DNA of 63,570 nucleotides, the filler included, from Choristocarpus tenellus KU-1152 (lineage: Eukaryota; Protista; Phaeophyceae): assembly GCA_964200185.2 (NCBI GenBank). It is 11 parts of 11 records of this genome, joined end to end, with 100 filler letters (N's around TTAATTAATTAA, not from the genome) between each part and the next. Parts side by side here need not be neighbours in the genome. Positions count along the whole stretch, not along the records: positions 47,042 to 52,631 come from CAXNAD020010323.1; 10 more parts are not named here. One strand, written 5' to 3'. The position numbers and the translations under genes are program-made. The notes under the pieces are model-generated. The model searched no databases. It was not told the DNA's origin and worked only from the letters and a program-made list of their open reading frames with translations. Below are positions 776 to 53,763 of the stretch, piece by piece. Each line of letters begins with the position of its first letter. The first letter of the stretch is position 1.

Positions 776-2628
776 CTCCATTGGTTGATTTGAACACGTC
801 GTTTCTGCATCGCATGCCGTTGTACCTCTCATCATCTTCTGGCCATCCCCCGAACCCCCCCATCACGTACATCGTCTCATTGAATCCCCATCCAATCTCT
901 TCACTGAACACTGGTAGGGAGTGCTTGATGACTGCTACCGCTGAGGATGGGAAAAGGTGTTTCGTCTGGTCACACAAGATGAGTCACGCATTGAGATTGG
1001 AGTTGGGGTCTGATGATGGAAAGGCTGTTCCTCCCATTTGTAAGGTTTCTGCAAATAGCTTTTACAGTAGGCTACACATGAGAGCCAGGTCCATAATTCC
1101 CTCTGACATGCTCACCATGTCCAGCCCGTGGAGAGAATGGAACAGCATCTCGTCCCACCATTTTTTCCCACACAAACACCCACTTCCCATGTCTTGTCTC
1201 ACTAATATTCTTTGATGCCCAAATGTCATTGGTTAGAGGGGAGCCACCCACAATGAAGATCCTGTGCATTTATTGATGGAGATTATTGTCAATATTTGTT
1301 CAAGTCGTTCTGCAATTGACTTGAGACAGAGCAACTGCACCCGCAACTGCACAACTTGCTTTTGCTATTGGACATGTACACTCCCGAGTATATATCTTGC
1401 TATGATATGTTATCCAAATTTATTGCTGAAGGTACAGTAGTATGTTCTGCTGATATAGTGTTGAATGCCAAATATCCAAGTAGATATCAAATATCTATGC
1501 ATGATATCATCATGTAGAAAATCAATCTCATTCTCAACTACTGCAACAAGCGCACATATGCACTACATCAGTAGCAGGAGTATTCAATAATTATTTTTTG
1601 TCAGAAATCTTTCACACGAAAGTCCTCACCTGTCTCGGAAGACAGTGCTTGCATGCCAAGCGCGTTCTGTCCAATTAGCATGGCCTGCAAAACGCCAGTC
1701 ACCTTGTAGAACAGCGGCATATGATTCAGCAATGTGCATTGTATTTCGCATATTTAGTTGTATTCCGGATAAGGTGTGTCTATCATGCTCCTTATGGAAC
1801 CACAAAGCTATCGTCCATAACCCACCGCATTTCAACGTGAAGAAAATCTCATGTATTTTAAGTATAAGGGACTGAGAGCCTAACATCCCCCTAGAAGTAT
1901 TTTTCCTCTAACGGAAAGAAATTGAACCAGTTTACCATGCAGGTCTCTGATCCGTATCCAAGATTCGTATTTCCCTTCACTCAGCACAATTCTACAGATT
2001 GTCACTTTATCCCAGGTGAAGACCATCCAAACTCCACTTACTGCCATCTTTCGTTATCCAAACATCATTGTTGGCATCTGGCGTGTAACCCCCAGCAAGA
2101 ATCATCAGCTCGATGGTGGTTCCATTGAAGGTGGTGACATTGAGAACGTCCAAGGTGTGTCCAAATCTTGCGTACCAGGGTGCAAGTGAGCCAGGATTCA
2201 AGGCATCAAAATTTTGCTCCTCGAAGTCGCCTGTGAGGTTTACAGTCTGCGCCCAGGTTGCTCCATAATCACTGGAGGTCCAGACATCTCCCCGACGATG
2301 AGTATATTCGAGGTTATACGCTTGATATAGCTCGCTACGACCACCAACGACCCAAAGCTTGTCCTTGAATACTGCTGTTGCATGACCTGTGATGGGATGC
2401 AAGATATGAGATAGCGAAAGGGTCAATACGTGTATATTGGTTTTCTCTGTGTGGGCAGGGCGATGGTAGAAGCAGCCGATCCTTACCATGACGACCCGTG
2501 AAGGAGTCATCCTCTGCGTTTTGTTGAATCCAGCTCGTGGCTGGCAACGCGTATTGTGTTGCGTTCGTACATATGTATGGAAAGAGGATCAGAACTTTGA
2601 CGGGCAGAGTTTCAGCAAACCCTCCCAT
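776..2628 (-). CDS. Kelch/beta-propeller repeat protein, 3'-partial (exons approx. 2628-2487, 2386-2042, 1704-1630, 1261-1116, 941-776)
   Basis: Phase-compatible GT-AG exons give repeated Kelch motifs: FTGRHGHATAVFKDKLWVVGG, WYARFGHTLDV..MILAGG..NNDVW, WTERAWHASTVFRDRIFIVGG..TNDIW, FSPRAGHAVAV..MYVMGG..RNDVFKS. The start codon is tentative. Confidence 0.8.
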
Positions 2629-17422: not shown

Positions 17423-19626
17423 TCAATTTTTATTCTTTCTGCTTCCACGCCCTCTACCCCTCCCCCCACCTCCCCTTCCCTCTCTCCTCTCCCTACCTCC
17501 CCTTCCCTCACCAGTCCCATCACCTTCACCACCAACCCCGCTACCATGCCCACCAATGCCCTGATTTCCTACTGGCTCCTGGCCCCTGCGTCCTCGCCCA
17601 CCCCCTTTCCCACCCTGCCTGCAACCACTGCCTTGGTCTCCCAGTTCTGTCCTTGCTTTCCACCTTGGAGCTTTAGACTCTCCTCGCGATTCACCCACCC
17701 GCCCTCCTCGGTCTGGCACATCCCCCATGAGCACTCTCTTGGCCACACTCTTTCCTGCAACAGCCTCCTGAGACATCATTATAAATCCAGGGGGCGCATG
17801 GGGCACGAGAGAAGTGGAGTCAGTCAAGAGCCTCTATCCTCATGCTTGAGTTTCCTGCCAATGTCATCACTAGGGTGATGAGGCAAACGCTATGCGAATG
17901 ATATATAACGTAGAGAGAAGAGAACAACAGGAACACATTGCACATACCCTACAAATGTCAGGCCCACTTTTGTGAGGGATGGATGGGTCTACAATGCATT
18001 CTATTCAAGGACGATGGTTGGTGTTGATTTAGTGCACTGCTGCTGCTTGTGATAGATGTGTGACCACAGCTACTTTCCCCCCCATTGCTTCACCCACCGC
18101 AGCTATCATTCGAGTATGCTCCCAGGCCACACAGTGTCTGGCCTGCAGGGCGTCATCCACCGAAATAGCCCTACTGCTGTCTGCAATTGTATCCATTCTT
18201 TCCTGATGAGGGGAAAATACAAGTGGGCGTGTAGTGCATATCCATGAAATGAGGAGAGAGAGGGCATCAGTTCCTCCTTCATCCTCCAGCATAGGGTTTA
18301 GGGCAGTTCTTTGGCGTCTTTTTTATTAGTTCTTAAGGGCAACGAGTTAGACAGACTTCACAAATGGTGTCATTCCTCATTTGTTCATAGAGAATCATAA
18401 CATGATACGTTTACCTTGGTACACATACAACTGTATTCAGGACGATGGTAAGGTGTATGGAACAAAGAGGGAGTTGGGTTCCCTCTGTGATACCAAGCCT
18501 CGAGAAAGGATCAACGGTAGCTGTACAACCTTCATTTGTGCAGCAATGGCACCCTTGTCGCTTCCCAGTAAGTCTTTTCCCTTCAAGAACGATTGCACAG
18601 CAACATCACAGCGCCGGAGCAACATGCGTCTCCTAAGCTGGAAGTCAGCTGACATAGCATTGTTTACCCGCTCCACCACCTCTCGCTGTGAGTTCGTGAG
18701 GTGGATGTCTCCGAGCATTGAATGAGCGACACGCACTGCATCCTGTCCAACAGGTTTCATGGGAACTTCAGCTCTGGAGGAACCGATGAGGGTCTCAGCC
18801 TTGACTGCAATTGAGGCCATGAGAGTATCTGGTTGGGCTTGGACATGTCCTTCGGGTCGAGATACCTACCCGAGACGAAGGAAAGGTTACGAAATTGAAA
18901 CACGATTAGATGCGTTCTAAAATGAAATTCTGTGTATCAGAAAGATGGGGCTCTTGTCTCTGGCAACAACTTTCATGTCCATAATTTTTTCAACCTGAAG
19001 TACTGACTGCAGGGAATTCATCACCACCATTGCTCGGCGGCGCTCATCCTCCGCGTTAATGTTGACCTCGTGATTGGCGGCGACGTCTTTAGCGACAACA
19101 GTACCTTCCCCCAGTTTCAGCTGGTGCAGTCTGCGATAGGACTCAATGCAAAGGGCCTGCAATTCTGAGCACAAAAAGGTTAGGATTTCCACCCTGGGAT
19201 TGGCAATTGAAAAGATGCAAAGTGAGTGCGTTTGAGGTTGAGGCCCTATCACTCACTATCACTCAATGGACTCTGATAGAAAGATTGAAGGTATGATCGC
19301 ACAATCTCAAAGCGGGAGTGGAAGCACCTTTGATCGGATACATTGCATCCACCAGGTAGTATTGGCATGCCCCTTAATCTTGCAGCCTCGGCTGCATCGA
19401 TGTTCTTGTCCGGTTTGATCGTTGACCTGTCGAGTGCGAGTTCGAGGATGTGTATCTGATTCAAGACTTGAGCTTGGACGGTAATGAACGCATCCTCTTG
19501 TGCCCCTCCTGGCTGTACTCCCTGCGCTGCGAAACCTTCTGAATCTAAACCGACATCCAGATCAGATAGCTGCAGGTTTAGATTACCCACAGCCAGGTCA
19601 GGGTCAGCAAGGGCACTCATCATCAT
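17423..19626 (-). CDS. FAM98: FAM98 family protein (DUF2465) with an RGG-rich C-terminal tail; 5 exons (approx. 19626-19257, 19193-18995, 18865-18530, 18202-18074, about 17767-17423)
   Basis: Diagnostic FAM98 motifs RVEILTFLCSELQA, DFQLRRRMLLRRCDVAVQSF and KRVLMGDVPDRGGR are followed by a GGRG/RGG tail and a stop codon. Splice sites are GT-AG. Confidence 0.88.
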
Positions 19627-39479: not shown

Positions 39480-42400
39480 GCATGAACATGGTAGTAGTCG
39501 GACACCAAGGCAAGGTACACTGGTGCATAAATCACTACAACCTGCAACTCTACCCGTACTTCAACAAAAAACCGAAACGACCGAAGCCCTATTTCAATTG
39601 GTGGGCGGACTCGAAATCGCTTTCGTCCCCCACTCTGTGAGCTTAGGGTATGCCTCGAGTACCTGGCGTTCCAAGTTTCGGACTTCACAAGGCTCCAGAA
39701 GATAGCCTTCCTCGCCTGGAGTGCTTCCACATGCTCGGGACAACGTGTTGCCTGGCTTCCCTCCACGATCGCCGAGTTTAACCTGTGTGGGCTCGAGGAC
39801 GTTGCATTCATCCCTGAACACAAGAGAAACGGCCCCTTTACCGGCCTTGATGAGCCTGAACCCATGGTCGTATATGACTTGGGTGAGGATTTGCGTCTGC
39901 ACTCGATACTGTGAAGAAGCAGGTTTCGTTGCTGATCGTAGGAGCTCGGTAACGCACGCCTCCATGAAGGCTTCAGTGATCCCCACATCGGATGCATCGC
40001 CGGAGTCGGCCGCGTCCTGTGTGATGCAATCCTCATCACCATGAGATGATCTTTCGTCGTCATCGTCGTACCTCGATGTAGATGAACACGGATTTACCTT
40101 GGCAGAAGTGAAAACGTTGTCGAAGAAGCCAGGTTCCAATGCGCTGCCATGAGGACCATGAGGCTGTTTGAAGGGTCTCAGTCGTCCAGCACCTCCTCTC
40201 ACCCTCTTCTTCCTAATTAGCGTCCTTTTCCCCTGTCCTTTGCCCTTCTTGGAAGGCTTGTCCCTCGGGGTTGGGGTAGGATCAGCATGGACGAGGTTCT
40301 CACTTCGCCTCACAGTATGGTCGTAGATGTTCCCTGGCACTTGTGCCTTGTCGCTGCCGCTGCCTACTGAATGGGCGTTCGGTGACATAAATGGGTCACT
40401 CCTGACAGGCGTGGACTCTGAGTCCTTGCCTAGGCGCCCCCTCACGTCCTCCTGTGCAAGTTTCTCTGGACATGACAAAGCGTTACAAACGGATCGGCCC
40501 CCATCGCCTTCAGAGTTGTGTTCCAAGGGTGTAATTGTACGCCTCCCCCCTCGTAGAGTCCTGCTTCCCGTACCTACTGCAGGGCTAGGCGATGGGCTAT
40601 CTTGTTCCTCTTCATCACCTGGTGGGTCGGGTCCTCCACAGGGTATAGGCGTGGATATGCCACCAGCTACCGGTGTCTTCACCAGTGTAAAATTGCGTAA
40701 GGTGGAGAGTTTGTCTATCAGGAGTTTGATACGATCCGGATCTAGGTTGTTCCCGAGGGCGGTGCATGTGATTACCATGCCTCCTGGTCAGGTCTGGAGA
40801 AGGGCGACTCTCTCGTGAGCAGCGCTCGTTTCGGACCTGAACTTCTCGAGGTCGTGCTCGGGTGTGTCGTTCTTGTCTGGGGTGATCACGATGGTTGTGA
40901 CTCTAGGTATCTCTGTGGTGGTGGAGGAGTAGGCAAAGGACGTGGCGAAGTAGGGGTCAAAACAACGGGAGGAGGTGTTAGCGTTACGAGTCAAGGGATG
41001 AGATAGAGGTTGGTGAAAAAGAGTAAGCGAGGCAGGATACAGAGGAGGAGGTAGGGGCTGAGCAAAGGATGGATGGATAAGAGTACTAGCGGTTCGTTAA
41101 ATTTAGGCGGATATTCGAGCCCATAAAACAGGAAGACAAATAGGGCTGGTAACATAGGGTGAAGAGGATGCGTATAGGACTAGCATGTAACTGCGAGATA
41201 ATTTCCCTACTTTTGCCGGGTTCTGTCGATCGGTACAATACAGTGAACGTATTAGTCAATCTGTTCGACGAGCAACTTCACAACATATGAAACTGGAGAA
41301 CCCTGTGACAATTTATGTTGTGAAAATGTCAAACGCCGTAAGATCTGTTAGAGTCTAGGTAGTGTGTTTGGTGTAGGGAACCATGTGTGGATGTTAACCT
41401 ATGGCAATGTTGTACAATGATGTAATTGCTTACCTGCGTGTTCGTCATTGGTGTTCAGGGTAATGCCATTAGAGCATTTGACGTCCAGGTATTTTGTACC
41501 CTCCTCCACATCCTCCCTCAACATGGAGATCCCTTTTCATCTGTGGATTTTACGGGTTACATTGATGTGTGCGATCAGGGCATTTATTGTAAGGTGGCTT
41601 GATAGGAACTGAAATACGGTGGAGAGATGAGATGATGAACCTCACACACAGTTAAGTACCTCGTCGCTGAGGAGATATTTTTTGGTAGGAGGACCCTCGA
41701 CTGAAGACCCTGCTGATGGACCATCGGCGTAGGGGTCTATCCCGAGCTTGTCTTTCCTTTTTAGGTCGTCCATAACTTGTATGGCGACCTCGAGGACAGC
41801 CCTCTCGATGAGGACATTCTTGATGTACATACGTCTCATGTATGCCAATTCGACTTTCCAGGGTTGAGACGCCCACTCTCCTTCGCCTGGGTGGCAGACG
41901 CCGTGTCTGGATCGCCGACCCCTGGTCTATTCTTCTTCCCCTTTCCTTTTGTCTTCTTCTCTCCTTTGTCCTGGTCGGCTGGGGGCCGTTTGTTCCGGAC
42001 GCCCCTAAGAGTGTGGGAGAACTGTCATGGAGAAGCACATGGGTAGCGGAACAGTAAGTCACATGGATGACATGGGTGTCTGCCTCGCGAGGCATGAACT
42101 AGACGGTGAACATTGCAGCTGTTGCAGGATCAGGAGGGGGGTATATGCATATTCATCCATACGTTACTTGAATCGTCATGGTCAAAATCGACTTACCCAT
42201 TCCTCTGGAAATGTCTCTGTCCCGACAACATACGTCAACGAGAGTGCGTCAGTAGGCAATTTTTTGGCAGCCTGTTCTGAGAAGAGGTTGGTAGCCACCT
42301 CGACAATGTCGCACTAGCGACGACCTTGGGGATTCTCCCCTCTAAGGATGGCTAATCCGACTTCAGCGAGGACATCGGTGCACATTCTTGCGAAATAGTG

Positions 42401-46883: not shown

Positions 46884-47107
46884 GACTCAAAGTATCTGGG
46901 GGGGGGGGTGGCGGCTGTCCATTTGGGGCCAATTTTTCCATNNNNNNNNNNNNNNNNNNNNNNNNNNNNNNNNNNNNNNNNNNNNTTAATTAATTAANNN
47001 NNNNNNNNNNNNNNNNNNNNNNNNNNNNNNNNNNNNNNNNNTTTGAAAAAATCCATATTAAGCCTAAAAACCCACAGTAGTATTTGAAAATGGCCCAGAA
47101 CCTTTTT

Positions 47108-47138
<31 letters not shown>

Positions 47139-47168
47139 TACTCATCTATTGTCTTTCTCTATTCCAAG

Positions 47169-47877
47169 AGAAACTCAGGCAGTGTTGGAAGGGCTCGGTG
47201 TATCAACAGACGTTTTGACTAGGGTGGTATTTCAAGGACAGCATCACATGCACGGGCTGTTGGAGAGTACAGATGCGCGATTGAAGGAGGAGCTCTCTGT
47301 CTTGGTACGTTGGTCCGTATGTGTCCCGTGTTCTATAGATCACGCCTGATGGGCAAACCTAGCCGTCCCGTAGGGTTGCCGTAACATTGGTTGAGAGTGA
47401 TGTAGGGGGTTGTGTGATATATAAATAAATATATATATGTATGTATATATATGTATAATATATTTGTACCCCTTTTTGTTTCATTTTCTTTAATTTTTTT
47501 GTCTTTTTATTGTACAAGTTTTTTTTTTTTGTGTATGCATGCATCATCTATCTCGCTATGCATATAGGTGAAAGTTGAAGATCCTGCTCCATTGATCTGT
47601 GGACTGAATTGTTTGAAAAACAAAAAATACGGTGGTCAGGTGTCTTGTTATTAAGCGTTTCCCTTACCTTGCACCTCCTCCTCCTCCCCCTGACTGTAAT
47701 ACGTTCACTCACGGTGGTGTGTGTGTTTCTTGTTGTTGGTTAAGAGTTTCTCACTTTTTGGACGCTTTGTTTATTTTTTCCGAGTAGGTCCCGATGGAAA
47801 TGTGGCAGGATATGGCATCACGCAGTCGGGAGATGGCTAGGAAGTGCGGGGAAGATAGGGCCAGGCTCGCAGCACAG
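47169..47877 (+). CDS. SbcC/Rad50/SMC-like ATPase, two internal exons (47169-47304, 47788-47877)
   Basis: The spliced sequence ETQAVLEGLGVSTDVLTRVVFQGQHHMHGLLESTDARLKEELSVLVPMEMWQDM matches the SbcC/Rad50 Q-loop segment leading into the coiled coil. The GT-AG join is phase 0. Confidence 0.65.
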
Positions 47878-47894
47878 GTATCCAAAAAGTAGCA

Positions 47895-47975
47895 TTAGGG
47901 TTAGGGTTAGAGGGTAGGAGTTAGGAGTAGAATAATTGAGGTTGGGATTGGGTTTGGGATTAGGTTTAGGGTTAA
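47895..47975 (+). repeat. Degenerate TTAGGG interstitial telomere-like tract (similar tracts near 6235-6345, 6693, 6863, 11744)
   Basis: TTAGGGTTAGGGTTAGAGGGTAGGAGTTAGG... Confidence 0.6.
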
Positions 47976-48280
47976 CAGTTAGAGGTTATCTATTGGAGTT
48001 CTGAAATTGTGTGTGTTTTAAATGTGAAGTGGAAAGGAGAGTGTGTAACTGAGTGAGCCTACCTCTCTCCTTTTTCGGTTTTCTTTTTTTGTGTATTTGA
48101 AGTGGTGGGGCAGTTTTTTTTTCCACTACTACTGTAGTTGTGCATTTTGTAATTTATTTCCTGTGGAGAGATTGTAGAGTTACCAGGATGTTTTGTGCGC
48201 GTGTATAGTATGATACAATATGATAAATGCTATCCTATGCTGCAAATGCGTTGAATGTAATCCATGGCAAATAGAAGGTA

Positions 48281-48650
48281 GTGGTGGAGCAGGAGTGTAC
48301 CAAGAGAGAAAGGATAAGCAGGGTCACCGCAGTTCTAGATGACTGTACCATCCCATTCCTGTGGTACCTGGACAACACTCTGGTCGATCCGAACATGCAA
48401 TCGTATTACCTGGCGGTGGAAGGTACGAGCAACACGGGCAAGTCAGTGTTGATGTCTGCTGTTTCGGATGCTACGGCAACGGTACAGTCGTCTGTACTCT
48501 GCTGTCGTGTATGAAGACGGTAGCCTCACACCTCAGATACTCAGAATCATATGTCAGTCTAGCTAAGATACTCAGTATAGTAGTATGCCCAGATGTAACT
48601 CACTCACCTTTATCACCGCCTATCAATCTCGAACACGAAAGTAGCAACCA
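48281..48650 (+). pseudogene. Decayed viral-type P-loop NTPase (SF3 helicase-like or packaging ATPase-like)
   Basis: Walker A YLAVEGTSNTGKSVL; after a frameshift, a Walker B-like AVVYED and a motif C-like LTFITA. No introns seen. Confidence 0.5.
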
Positions 48651-48691
48651 GTGGTGACTGGGCAATGATTGGTAGTGGTCATATCGCTACC

Positions 48692-51600
48692 ATGAAGAAC
48701 GCGATGGCATACTCTACCAACCAGCTACCTACACCTGTGCCAACCGCTTCCTGGCTGGTGAAGGAGAACACAAAGCGCTTTGCAGTCGTCTGAAGCGGTC
48801 GTACTGCTATCGTTTCCGGTATGGGAGCCGCATCGATCACTGTGATGCAGAAGATGAACCTGCTCGAAGCTGCAGTGTACTCTCGTCTGTGCTATGCTAC
48901 ACCACCAAACTCATTCAGATGTGCCATGCGAGTACTGCTGTTCAATGGAGCACCGGACGTCATGAAGTTCTTTGTTAAGGTCGGGGTCGGTACCTACCCT
49001 GATGAGGAGTACCAGGCATTCTTATCTCTGTTCTCTTTTATGGGCACTACAGTGCAGGACATGATATACAACTGCAAGGGCATTTTATTAATCGGCTATC
49101 GTTAGTCCAACCATAGACGACGGCTTCCGACAGTATGTTGGTGGGTTCATCCTGAACGATCCTCAGACACTGTCACCCGTACATTCAGTAGACCTGTCGC
49201 TGAGAACCGTGTGGAACATGATTGTGGCGAATAAGCTCATGCCCAATCGATCTGAGCCTTCGGGTGGCAGAAGAGACAACAACCGCATAGCCAGTTCCAT
49301 CGGATCTGTTGTCGGATCTTCCCAGGCATAACAGCTACTTCTGCAGCTCTCTTGCAGGCCTCGCTTAATCACTCGCGTTCGTACCGCACACATTTTCAAA
49401 AACACAGCTCCCGGACTGCAAAAATTACTGCCTATAGGCTCACCAGCAGCATCAGTTGCCTGGAAAGTCGTGTCAATGATGTCAGTTCTTGGGAAGACAT
49501 GCAACCTGTTGTTCATGTCACGGTCAGTTGCTGGAGTAAGGTTCGGAGTGACTGCCACTGACATAGCTACGGGAACGTACAGCATCTTTGCGACCAGAGA
49601 GACTGCGAAATTCAGATAATACATTAGGCTCAAGTGTGGAACTGTGTTCGGATGAGTGCAAGCTGTGAATCAGTCTACTGAAGCTACGGAAAGCTGCTGA
49701 CATCCAGTCAAACGTACAGGATGATCACTGCTGATTTGGTCACATCCATGTCCAGAAGCATAGACCACGTCCTGAAGAGGTTGGCGGCCATGCAGCAGAG
49801 GCTGACATCAACGCCGGACGTGAAAGAACTTGCGCATGAGACAGCTGCACTATGCAAGATAGTCAAGTCAGTTCTGTCGGCAACAACAACGACCAGATCT
49901 ATACCTGGTACCCTGCACCATGAGTGCCAACAGTTTTCATTTCTGCATGAAAGCTGTTGACATTGACACAGCTTTCTGGGCAACTAATGCTGCTGGTGAG
50001 CCTATGGCCAGTAATTTGGCTCTCTTGGACCTGTCTGGTGGACTGAACAGCTTACGAACAATGAATTATGCCATCGTGTCTGCCCTAATGATCGACATGA
50101 CCGGCCCAGTGAAGCATGTTTCGCCTTGTTCAAGCCAGAGCATCTAGCATAGCATTTCCAGTGGACAGCAACATCCACGAGAACGCCACTTGAACATTGA
50201 CACTGCACTGTCAGCTACGTCTGCCGGAAGGTATTGTTGTTCGTGGATAGTTGGAGGGCAACCGTGTTCCATCTCATGGTAGGATGCAGACGAGTAGAGT
50301 GGCAACACTCCAGTTGGGTACGGTTGGTCAGATAGGTAGATTGTTTCGATATCGTAGCACGTGCATGCAGCAAGGTAGTTCAGTGCAGTGTATGCCTGTG
50401 GATGATAACGAGCTAGCCTTGCATAGTGCGCAAGCATGTAGCTGTCAGAGGCAAGTTCATGAGACATGAGTGAGTTAAACGACTGTTTCCACTACTTGGT
50501 TGCAATCAGTCGTGGAGCCCAAGGTATGACTTCGTGTTCGTACTTGGTCCACACTTCCCAATCGATGAAGTTGTGTTCAGAAGTTGGTGATCCACCAGGT
50601 CTGCCATTCGGTGAATGTACTGCTCATGGGCCTACATGCCTTGGCTGTTTCAGGCAGCATGACGGAGTTGTTCTCTATCCAACCGAGCTGTGCTTGGTGT
50701 CTGATGGTTACATGGGCGGCATGGCCAGAGCTCAGCTTCAGTTCTCCAGGGGTAAGATAAATGCAGGTCTAACAACCAAGAGCGGTGACCTTTGAAAAAA
50801 AATAGCAGGAACACGTGTGAACACGTGTGGACGGGCGGGGGTGTAGAATGGTCATCTGCCCGTCCAGAAGCCTGCAGGTCGGTCAGGTCGGTCTACCTGC
50901 GTATGTGATGAGTGGAATGGCTGTTCCGTGTGCAGGTGACACTATGAATGCTCCATTGCTGGATGATGTAGTCCGCCACATCTACCGGTGTGAACTACGA
51001 TGGGGCGTCTGAAATGTGGTGTTGTCTACTGACTCGTTTGCCATGCTTATCAATTGGTGGGATACAGCCAGCGACATATCAATGATATGATTCCGATGGC
51101 AGATTGTGGTCGCATGCCCATTGCTGATGGCTGTAGTCGAGGAAATAACACTATGTACCTTTCGATGCAGTCTTGTGCACCATTCCAGGCCGACTATGGT
51201 GGGGATGAAACGATGATATGGCCGGTGACCAGCCGTACTGGCGACGAACGAGTGTAGCCAGTACAGGGTGACCAGAGAGATGTCGTTCAGTCGTTGGTTG
51301 ATACTCAGCAACAGCTCACTCACTGCCCTCCAAGTACGGGTTCTGGCCGGCCGTGTTCCGATACCGTGTTTTGTGTTTTGTGTTTTTGTTTTGTGTTTCT
51401 GTGTACCATGTCAAGTGTGATGTTCAGCAACCCTAGGGCAGTGTGACGGACTCGCTCGGTCTGGTGGAGGAGACCTGTCTCAGGTGGAGTCAAGGTATCG
51501 GGATCATTAAGTTGCTGAAGGGTCCACTGAATGACAGGGACTAACTACTACGGACAGTCTGTGTCTGTTGGCAACAGAAAGGTAACTCGCATCAACAGAA

Positions 51601-51850
51601 AGGTAACTAAGGTGTCACGCCAGCGCATCAACAGAAAGGTAAGTCGTCGTCGGTGGTTACATGAGCAAGTGTGTGCTCGAGCTGCTGCGTCCATGTATGG
51701 GGGGATGGGTCTCGAGCATGGTGTGAACGGAGGACTTGACGGGCACTTATACCGGTCAACCAGTGACCTACCAGACATCCTTCCTCCCTACCACATCTGT
51801 ACAGTGCTTTGAGATCTGTATGGCAACCCATTCATTCAAGGCTAGTTTGT
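48692..51850 (+). pseudogene. Decayed single-chain fused beta/beta-prime two-barrel DNA-directed RNA polymerase of a virus-like element
   Basis: Colinear RPB2-like motifs: IGY..PTIDDG..GGFILND; TNAAGEPMASNLAL; SNIHENA; GNRVPSHG; GTVGQI; KHVA..K; MSELNDC..RGA; C-x2-C. These run in frame into RPB1-like motifs: KSGDL*KKIAGTRVD..RMVICPSRSLQVGQVGLP; LINWWDT..ISMI; CAPFQADYGGDE; GLTTTD; GGYMSKCV; GQPV. Confidence 0.75.
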
Positions 51851-52170
51851 TGCCTGTGGCGGGTGTCTCCTTTCGTCTTCTATGTTACTTCGAGTGGAGA
51901 GGAGGGACAAAAATGCGCTGTTTTTTGCTAGTGTTGTTGTGGTCAGTGTTAACATGATATTGAAGTTGAAGTTGAGTTTGGAGGAAGGGCTTGAGATTGT
52001 GGAGGGGCTGAGAGAAGGGTATGAGATGGGCTTGTTTGTTTGTATTTTTTTTAATTTTAATTTTTCTCCCCTTTTTGGAACTTCTCATTATCGTTTTTCA
52101 TCGATACAAAAACAAATGAAAAAACAAATTAACACAGAAGATTCTTCATCCTCAGCGAAATTTGTGGCAC

Positions 52171-52392
52171 TAAATGTGCACTACTATTTCTGTGTATATA
52201 TATTGATAGAGTGAAATAGTATGTCTCTTATTTACAATAAAAAAATCTAAATGTGCACTACTATTGTATATATATACTGATAGAGTGAGGTAGTATGTCT
52301 CTTATTTACAATTTAAAATCTAAGTGTGCTACTATTTCTGTGTATATATATACTGATAGAGTGAGTTAGTATGTCTCTTATTTACAATTAAA
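52171..52392. repeat. About 75-bp AT-rich tandem repeat, 3 copies
   Basis: TAAATGTGCACTACTATT..TATATA..TGATAGAGTGA..TAGTATGTCTCTTATTTACAAT repeated three times. Confidence 0.9.
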
Positions 52393-53763
52393 AAAAAATT
52401 GATACTGACCCTAACACTCAACCTATTCAAGACCGTTTTTTTTTTTCTTTAGTATTAAAAAAAGTGATTTCATCGATCTCAAAGAGAAACAGTAACACGT
52501 TTTGCGTAAAGAACGGTTCCCTCGTGTTTTAAATTGTCTTACAGAAATAGAAACTCTTATTTGAATGATCACGGCCACGATGAACCCCTAACCCTATGGA
52601 CTTGATTGAATACAGTATACCAAGGTGGTACNNNNNNNNNNNNNNNNNNNNNNNNNNNNNNNNNNNNNNNNNNNNTTAATTAATTAANNNNNNNNNNNNN
52701 NNNNNNNNNNNNNNNNNNNNNNNNNNNNNNNTTTGTCTGTGCCTTTTGGCTTTTTTGGGGCTTTTGTTAATTTTTGTGTTTTTTGTGTGGGTCTTGTGGA
52801 TGAACGGGTGCTTGGGCTTGAGCGTAGTCACGACCCCCCAACCCTCGGGAGAAATGCTTGAAAACGCTCGGGGATGCCACAGAGATTCGGACTCGCTGTG
52901 CTTCTTTACACCTTCCGGCCACTTCTTCCCTCCATTCCAGTCCCTTATCGCATCCCCTTTTCTTGTTGCAGCATTTGAGCGGTTCACAAATACCGCCCCA
53001 CCTTCCTCGCCTTGCTCATCACATTACTGGTCAAAATTATCTACTATGACAAACAAAACAAACACGCAATGGACAAGGTGGCATCCCAATGACCTCCCTC
53101 CCCCACCCATGCCACACACCTCACTCCTCTCCCGTCCCTTCACTTTTTCTTCCCATCAGATCCGTCGAACCATTCGGTAGAGGATTCCCACCCCACAAAC
53201 CACACGCGGTACTAGGCACCACAATGATTCATTCTCTCCGTCACTGAACCGACGACTTGGGCATTTTTTACCATGGAATGGGGGACTCCATAAGGGCAAA
53301 AATTTCAGCGCTTGGACTGGGGCTTGGTTGCCAGGGGTGACACTTGACGCAGTCTTAAATCACCACAACTTGAGCCTCGGGTCTTCGGACAACTTGATCC
53401 CCTTTGCCGACTTGACCCCCAAAACTTCTGCGGTATCCTTAACGTGGCCGTGAGGGTGCACTTTGCGCCCGAGATAAGTTAATGGAGAAGGGTAAGCACG
53501 CCTACCCATAAACTAGCTTTGCATCTACACTCGTGACATATCACGCGAGGTGAAGGACAACATCCATTCAGGAATATTTCGAGATTGGAAGAAAACGTTA
53601 GCACTTCAGAAAAATAATCTGATCCAACGACTTGCCCCACAACTAATTGAACGTCCAGTTTCAGTCAAGTCGACTACTACTCGATCTAGCAACGGAAGAT
53701 CCGCTCCCTTCCCCACATCGGTACACGGCATGAACATCCTTTACATCCCTCCCATCCACTCAC

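Follow-up and report, generated by a model that had tools for sequence, protein, structure and literature searches.

Does the brown alga Choristocarpus tenellus carry in its genome the remains of an RNA polymerase from a foreign element, and, if so, from what kind of element? The question is raised by a single contig (positions 47042-52631) of the window analyzed here, a 63,570-nt stretch of about 11 small contigs joined via N-run spacers around TTAATTAATTAA. Because the window is a chain of contigs, the adjacent contigs provide no physical context, and the context of the relic is 47042-52631 alone. A preliminary description had read positions 48692-51850 as the fossil of a minimal enzyme in which the two large polymerase subunits, beta and beta-prime, are fused, left by a virus-like element (VLE). 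We found that the relic retains, in decayed form, the catalytic core of beta-prime from a highly divergent RNA polymerase of the multisubunit type. With moderate confidence, we interpret it as a dead single-copy intron insert, likely from a compact polymerase locus in which a beta-like part preceded a shortened beta-prime, and whose source was a cytoplasmic DNA virus or VLE of brown algae that has not been sampled.

The beta-prime core

All of the peptides quoted in the preliminary description were present at the given places, in three plus-strand frames. Two of them were the strongest: RMVICP..VGLP (50845) as a beta-prime motif and NTMYL..ADYGGDE (51147) as the metal-binding loop each ranked first of about 127,000 positions, at a level reached by none of 794 control windows. 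The support for KSGDL*KKIAGTRV as switch 2 was moderate (34/794). The motifs follow the order switch 2, GANY-like, RH..D and metal loop, the spacing from GxRV to the NADFDGD position is near canonical at about 125 codons, and the loop (QADYGGDE) has a glycine at one aspartate position. A frameshift-aware alignment over 50700-51350 scored 31.4; none of 180 control regions and none of 200 codon shuffles scored as high, and on this evidence the proposal of a decayed RNA polymerase relic was supported. When gap costs were relaxed, the score of the barrel was equalled by 2 of 61 controls, and a profile built from nucleocytoplasmic large DNA viruses (NCLDV) only did not join the barrel pieces.

Family searches gave matches of the same kind. 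Two fragments matched Pfam RNA_pol_Rpb1_2 (PF00623) in order (profile positions 8-51, E 0.045, and 124-154, E 0.12; 2 of 11 queries), a tighter barrel piece matched this family with an E value of 0.023, and the first barrel fragment matched archaeal subunit A-prime in NCBIfam (E 0.1). In the PDB, vaccinia Rpo147 was the sole polymerase matched by the first fragment (E 0.88, fifth of six matches, below defensins). Furthermore, 31 of 91 beta-prime barrel blocks had their best match of the whole window within the element, compared with 2.4 expected, and the two fullest bins of a tblastn search with 5070 open reading frames (ORFs) from fetched loci (8 and 8 of 121 matches) were those of the barrel.

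The reference sequences were giant-virus RPB1 and RPB2, archaeal rpoB and rpoA-prime, eukaryotic Pol I and the E. coli rpoBC loci. As previously proposed, the barrel is not of the bacterial or plastid type: E. coli RpoC, the one sequence that stands for bacteria in this plastid-free comparison, scored 21.5, compared with medians of 33.9 for 60 archaeal and 31.6 for 76 NCLDV sequences. The identity to each archaeo-eukaryotic group averaged 25-28% (30.5% at best), whereas the NCLDV, archaeal and Pol I sets were 45-50% identical among themselves and sequences within Pol I were 68% identical. The element was no closer to Pol I (28% mean, 30.5% best) than to the other groups. In a quick tree of 64 rows, it formed a branch of length 9.5 outside the Pol I clade without a usable place, long-branch placement being unreliable. 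The relic resembles canonical NCLDV RPB1/RPB2, archaeal RpoA-prime/RpoB and Pol I in having switch 2, R.VI.P..V.P, GANY-like, RH..D and metal-loop motifs at near-canonical spacing, but differs from them in its identity of 25-30%, in about 200 fewer residues before the candidate bridge helix, and in having no recognizable clamp, trigger or C-terminal half. An identity of no more than 25-30% to every group sampled suggests that brown algae harbour a lineage of self-transcribing elements that is still unsampled.

Beyond the barrel, GGYMSKCVLELL (51652) ranked second of about 127,000 positions for the ungapped bridge-helix block, and the chain of funnel, GL and bridge motifs at fixed spacing was reached by 3 of 236 windows. 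The bridge helix that had been proposed at GGYMSKCV was moderately supported, 33 of 794 control windows matching it when gaps were allowed. GLTTTD, taken for GLTP.E, was at chance level (126/794), and GQPV could not be upheld as the start of the trigger helix (189/794; ungapped score -20; best nearby site rank 104); the trigger helix/loop block had no match downstream of the barrel. The candidate bridge motif lies 156 codons past the metal loop, microsatellite and short duplications included; this distance is 356 in yeast Pol II Rpb1 and 117 in Orf6 of the yeast linear plasmid pGKL2 (counted from the alignment in PMC2919709). The frame ends 23 codons beyond the candidate bridge GY. Judged by these distances, beta-prime was probably shortened.

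The beta-like region and the junction

Support for a beta-like region, which would extend from 48257 to about 50630, is weak. The best beta-type motif, at 48257, was matched by none of the 794 control windows, and its ungapped score was 17.5 compared with 10.5 for the next best. The relic therefore does not start at 48692, as the preliminary description had it, but about 450 nt further upstream. An ordered chain over 10-11 beta motifs scored 4.51, in a region whose start (48160) was fixed after the 48257 motif was known; this score was reached by none of 134 overlapping control regions and by 3 of 200 and 2 of 200 shuffles. An alignment of the hybrid-binding-to-wall part (48900-49510) stood out from host regions (0 of 61; 2, 0 and 10 of 166) but was not significant against codon shuffles (9/100 and 89/100), and a fork-like stretch at about 48520-48630 was not significant (96-185 of 474). 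The sites of the beta double-psi barrel were matched by 20 of 794 (GDKF block) and by 157 and 588 of 794 control windows (NxED sites). Based on the motifs, homology of the upstream part to beta is fairly probable.

Most of the beta peptides that had been named earlier did not hold. GGFILND was at chance level (48/794), as were SNIHENA for GYNQEDS (588/794), GTVGQI for RMTIGQL (76/794), MSELNDC..RGA for FGEMERDC..HGA (167/794) and LCSEVG..TCLGC..YP for the C-terminal Zn site (402/794); TNAAG..NLAL as the fork motif (293/794) includes TNAAGEPMASN, which falls within an arm of an inverted duplication of 90 nt. GNRVPSHG was moderately supported in the region of GDKFASRHG (20/794), in a register different from the one proposed. 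The same stretch (50227-50340) also matches beta-prime switch 2 without gaps over 36 columns, and this second switch-2-like motif precedes the main one by 570 nt; a DNA-level duplicate of 50800-50900 was rejected as its source, since 58 of 211 controls were as good. No Rpb2 family was matched in any of the three library searches, and no RPB2 ORF occurred among the element matches listed in tblastn (best 3 per 150 nt). Of the two barrels with collinear motifs expected earlier, that of beta-prime was borne out, with Rpb1_2 fragments in order.

Two further stretches of this part were considered. P-loop-like YYLAVEGTSNTGKS at 48278-48511, which continues the reading frame of the beta-type motif, had only weak kinase/GTPase matches (for EGTSNTGKS, E 0.41 to the thymidylate kinase phrog_761 and E 0.07-0.13 to Pfam P-loop families), and LDD..P..Y.D.L before it may resemble the Walker B motif of superfamily-3 helicases. 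A 168-codon minus-strand ORF (49163-49669) was rejected as a member of a known family after family and ESM Atlas searches.

The beta-like and beta-prime parts meet in the junction ORF. The claim of one uninterrupted ORF was correct for 50463-50792; however, this ORF ends at a TGA inside switch 2. Past the stop, GTRV continues in the same frame, which is then shifted by a tandem duplication of 10 nt (50809-50828). GLPFGE..C.AHG at 50598 was matched by 3 of 794 control windows, and 26 of 1000 shuffles equalled a GEMERD-like motif that precedes GxRV by 66 codons and shares its frame. The proposed fusion is therefore backed by one in-frame motif, at a site other than that originally named, and this motif slightly favours one beta/beta-prime chain over two overlapping genes. 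A natively fused, single-chain minimal enzyme is a tentative reading of these data. Taking the ORF for an Rpb1 N-terminus (Zn8 start) was no better than 400 of 1000 shuffles, and it was rejected both as the beta Zn site and as the Rpb1 N-terminus (91/792 and 316/792). The beta-prime clamp had no match upstream of the barrel. AlphaFold prediction of the junction ORF alone, without an alignment, was uninformative (predicted local distance difference test score, 39.6).

Position in a host intron and decay

The block was found in three sequencing runs of one study. In run X1, a single 5656-nt contig covers 47149-52631 with 1 changed letter and 1 gap. Run X3, taken as RNA-derived solely on its GT..AG joints, contains the joints 47304>47788 (depth 181) and 47877>48278 and 48422>48764 (depth 17.3); these are contig depths, and no expression ranking is drawn from them. 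The main spliced form leaves 47877 for an exon beyond the contig, as indicated by a loose end in X3, and therefore the relic block is intronic with respect to a host gene that is spliced. A minor isoform (47877-49124) has the host exon spliced onto two cryptic exons within the relic, with the frame ending at 48978; the stop codon interrupting the beta-type motif at 48257 also serves as its first cryptic acceptor (48278). The host exons may resemble SbcC/Rad50. The possibility that the breaks are introns of an intact gene was rejected, because the X3 pieces over 49668-51636 are unspliced and cross stop codons; no spliced joint over the polymerase part was present in the X3 pieces listed. A second copy with at least 80% identity was likewise rejected, none being present among the pieces listed in the three runs.

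Integration into ochrophyte nuclear DNA, as had been proposed, is supported by the splice joints and by a gene on another contig of the window that is closest to brown algae. This is a kelch-repeat host exon (2031-2387, minus strand), 80% identical to a protein of Discosporangium mesarthrocarpum (Ectocarpus, 69%; Sphacelaria, 67%; Tribonema, 50%). Provided that all contigs stem from a single organism, these identities make a host among the early-branching brown algae likely. A second host exon (18440-18865, minus strand) belongs to the DUF2465 family (E 2.4e-10). The contig at 38957-46941 has higher GC and CpG (0.48 and 0.81) and dispersed 250-nt repeats common to other contigs, and is possibly a mobile element; its minus strand carries a 397-codon ORF (39594-40787) without a Pfam match.

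Within the block, the two arms of the inverted duplication differ at 20 sites, spread 6/7/7 over codon positions, 12 of the 20 being transitions. The duplication and the even spread of differences indicate a rearranged block in which neutral decay has changed each arm by at least about 11%. The stretch from funnel to bridge is interrupted by a microsatellite (about 51365-51405) and by a 19-nt repeat present in three copies (51567-51642). Frames stay open for 60-140 codons, with about 1 stop per 250 codons in the frames read as correct, a rough and biased density because open frames had been selected. This low density would place much of the divergence of the polymerase before its decay, the enzyme presumably having departed far from the canonical form by then. 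Observed/expected ratios over 48250-51860 were 0.67 for CpG, 1.42 for TpG and 1.45 for CpA, a pattern that may reflect methyl-cytosine decay; DNMT1 has been reported in Discosporangium and as lost in later brown algae (10.1101/2024.02.19.579948). To the right of the relic, a 76-nt AT-rich unit is repeated three times in tandem (52170-52395). The coordinates of the features are given in Table 1.

Table 1. Features of the relic contig, in window positions
Feature	Position	Strand	Remarks
Host exon upstream of relic	47173..47304	+	GT..AG joint to 47788 in X3; open frame; exon start approximate
Host exon	47788..47877	+	joint, plus loose end behind 47877 in X3
Foreign coding-like block	48230..51900	+	GC 0.50 vs 0.42 and 0.34 in flanks; single copy; without clear terminal repeats
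Best beta (Rpb2) candidate, VIHGK*KVVVEQE	48257..48295	+	second half of GYFIING protrusion motif; broken by stop/splice acceptor
Cryptic exon, minor host isoform	48278..48422	+	in frame with host exon; X3 contig with GT..AG joints
Second cryptic exon, minor isoform	48764..49124	+	frame stops at 48976-48978
Possible beta hybrid-binding motif, weak	48899..48928	+	PPNSFRCAM (48902); 4/794 control windows
Inverted duplication, arm A	49422..49511	.	90 nt; 78% identical to arm B
Inverted duplication, arm B	49928..50017	.	contains TNAAGEPMASN (fork site of the preliminary description)
Ambiguous stretch	50227..50340	+	beta GDKF..RHGQKGT register (20/794) or second beta-prime switch-2-like motif (1/794)
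Junction ORF	50463..50792	+	possible beta switch 4, GLPFGE..C.AHG, at 50598-50630; beta-prime switch 2 begins here
Beta-prime switch 2 and double-psi barrel	50766..51220	+	one stop, about three frameshifts; metal-binding loop reads QADYGGDE
Likely shortened beta-prime funnel to bridge helix	51301..51690	+	bridge GGYMSKCVLELL at 51652; frame stops at 51724-51726

Origin of the insert

Searches for a living relative of the relic gave no homolog. A word-seeded search of 5.8 billion proteins (a one-frame read and a 62-residue barrel fragment) returned none, phmmer with another one-frame read against 1.84 billion representatives gave 0 matches at E 0.001, and no homolog was found in IMG/VR with the junction ORF or in PDB, ESM Atlas and phage records. 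Pattern scans covered at least 120 loci per high-yield pattern, with flanking DNA for 80. The pattern of a short beta/beta-prime junction had 9 matches, all by chance; variant metal-loop patterns had 0 in viral and 0 in metagenome contigs, further metal-loop patterns matched only canonical-size giant-virus and phage genes, and the Pol III-type bridge pattern was not found in the viral contigs scanned. All of these searches are weak evidence of absence because they used broken single frames or exact patterns. Three viral contigs of 224-230 kb (L390, L391 and L405) carry a short beta-prime-like ORF of 546-555 residues that ends soon after NADFDGD; we take these ORFs to resemble split jumbo-phage enzymes.

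In the literature consulted, fused, reduced beta/beta-prime enzymes in eukaryotes have been described solely from yeast VLEs (PMC6211774, PMC2919709). Their Orf6 is a fusion of beta with a partial beta-prime that is devoid of most of the clamp and rim helices and has been termed unique (PMC6211774). Like pGKL2 Orf6/Orf7, the relic has beta followed by partial beta-prime, provided that the weak beta motifs hold (PMC6211774, PMC2919709), and it shares with Orf6 a short path from metal loop to candidate bridge, a total of about 1000 codons and a likely end soon after the bridge helix (about 12 codons past GY in Orf6). However, the relic barrel keeps the canonical insert (about 125 codons from GxRV to NADFDGD, compared with 72), and its junction is 66 codons, compared with 149 in Orf6 (PMC2919709). 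The assignment to the pGKL2 Orf6 type would agree with the loop-to-bridge path and is contradicted by the barrel spacing. Unlike yeast VLEs, which exceed 75% A+T (PMC4431711), the relic has a GC content of 0.50, an algal host, an integrated position and no terminal repeats or companion genes; neither terminal repeats nor a protein-primed DNA polymerase, a capping enzyme or high A+T was seen on its contig.

Nuclear relics of viral type with reduced, decaying polymerase subunits are also known from Physcomitrella, whose NCLDV-like regions (61 loci) carry separate RPB2 and RP1n genes along with DNA polymerase and capping genes (PMC4083422). There, beta-prime is split into N- and C-terminal genes and silenced, and the moss RP1n, unlike the relic, has no barrel insert and a longer N-terminal clamp (PMC4083422). 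In brown algae, viral insertions are mostly of Phaeovirus, some being related to mimivirus, and ancient non-Phaeovirus insertions have been reported (10.1101/2024.02.19.579948); a giant-virus insertion in Undaria is reported to contain no RNA polymerase genes (10.1101/2025.02.06.636530), and the term RNA polymerase is missing from the main text of 10.1101/2024.02.19.579948 and PMC11890097. The relic is similar to these insertions in being foreign viral-type DNA that decays in a nuclear genome with some splicing or transcription, and differs from those described in being a polymerase gene of 3.6 kb. A fused or reduced polymerase relic in ochrophytes was not reported in the literature searched, which excluded most subscription papers and preprint supplements.

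An origin from a compact polymerase locus has to be weighed against several results. The beta-like half is the weaker part: unordered beta blocks peaked in the element at chance level (6/205, 4/223 and 19/577, with 5.3, 5.8 and 15.0 expected), the whole-beta alignment was equalled by 6 of 40 shuffles, and the beta chain, once deprived of the 48257 motif, was reached by 54 and 48 of 200 shuffles. Anchored extension from the barrel gained nothing on either side (51, 55, 28 and 50 of 200 for upstream and downstream together, of which 28 and 50 belong to the downstream side), and gapped alignments of the region after the barrel were matched by 14 and 161 of 180 controls. As to the junction, the first ATG of its ORF (50466) overlaps the TGA of the upstream frame. 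Such an ATGA stop/start is the usual arrangement for tandem genes in compact genomes, and thus the overlap, which was noticed post hoc, fits two tandem genes better than a fusion; two genes could also have been joined in frame by a deletion after insertion. With one broken copy, the small size of the relic may likewise stem from later deletions. Capsid, DNA polymerase, helicase and capping genes are absent from contig 47042-52631, and among the matches of the 5070 ORFs from fetched reference loci there was no hallmark gene besides polymerase. An intact relative was absent from every search, so that no virus is shown. Finally, region borders and several sites were picked post hoc, and the profiles and tree were built without Pol II, Pol III, poxvirus, VLE or moss sequences.

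These weaknesses lend some weight to a mosaic, in which only the beta-prime core is polymerase, the upstream 2.5 kb are a rearranged patchwork of further foreign genes (such as a P-loop kinase at 48278-48511), and a giant-virus RPB1 of canonical size was shortened after insertion. The chance-level unordered beta tests, the weak P-loop matches of EGTSNTGKS, the near-canonical barrel spacing, the rearrangement proved by the inverted duplication, and the ancient non-Phaeovirus insertions reported in brown algae (10.1101/2024.02.19.579948) would all suit it. We nevertheless consider a mosaic unlikely, since the 48257 motif, unmatched in 794 windows, shares the strand and marks the left edge, the ordered beta chain was reached by only 2-3 of 200 shuffles, and frames of 60-140 codons would hardly stay open if a canonical gene had decayed heavily. 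A processed pseudogene of great age, derived from the largest subunit of host Pol I, II or III or from a lost divergent host paralog, would account for an intronless, single-copy, intronic sequence of archaeo-eukaryotic type, and the Pol I profile did score 25.1 over the barrel region (reached by 1 of 180 controls); by eye, the bridge motif has GYM as in Rpc160 and a cysteine as in Rpa190. Against this origin, the identity to Pol I is far below the 68% seen within Pol I, the archaeal profile outscored that of Pol I (29.6 vs 25.1, in a comparison that did not include Pol II/III), a retrocopy would carry no beta-type motif upstream, and such decay should leave more stops, and we regard it as improbable. 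Least probable is a true member of the yeast Orf6 family, an algal nuclear copy of a gene from a helper plasmid of pGKL2 type. The short distance from metal loop to bridge, the early frame end (23 codons past the bridge GY, about 12 in Orf6), the absence of a trigger motif in cis and a total length of the same order would fit, whereas the relic keeps a segment that Orf6 lacks, from switch 2 to the NRQP position (about 125 vs 72 residues), the GC content of 0.50 contrasts with more than 75% A+T in VLEs (PMC4431711), no other VLE gene is on the contig, and the well-kept beta motifs of Orf6 have no clear counterpart (PMC2919709).

If the insert does come from a compact polymerase locus, the source enzyme would have transcribed the genes of its own element away from the host nucleus, because elements carrying Orf6-type enzymes transcribe outside the nucleus (PMC2919709). 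The absence of terminal repeats and of an integrase would point to the capture of a 5-prime-truncated fragment by break repair; nuclear capture of VLE-type DNA is known in yeasts (PMC11848437). After insertion, the fragment may have decayed neutrally, and a part of it is today included by splicing in a minor host transcript whose frame ends early.

Should the single-chain reading hold, which is doubtful at present, the relic would be the second eukaryotic example of such an enzyme, far from yeasts, with the barrel insert kept, the clamp and rim helices lost, and a junction of about 66 residues. A fusion, if true, would mean that such elements have a far broader range of hosts, or else that a minimal polymerase arose a second time by an independent route. 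The single dead copy is a lead toward its source lineage, and not yet the description of that lineage.

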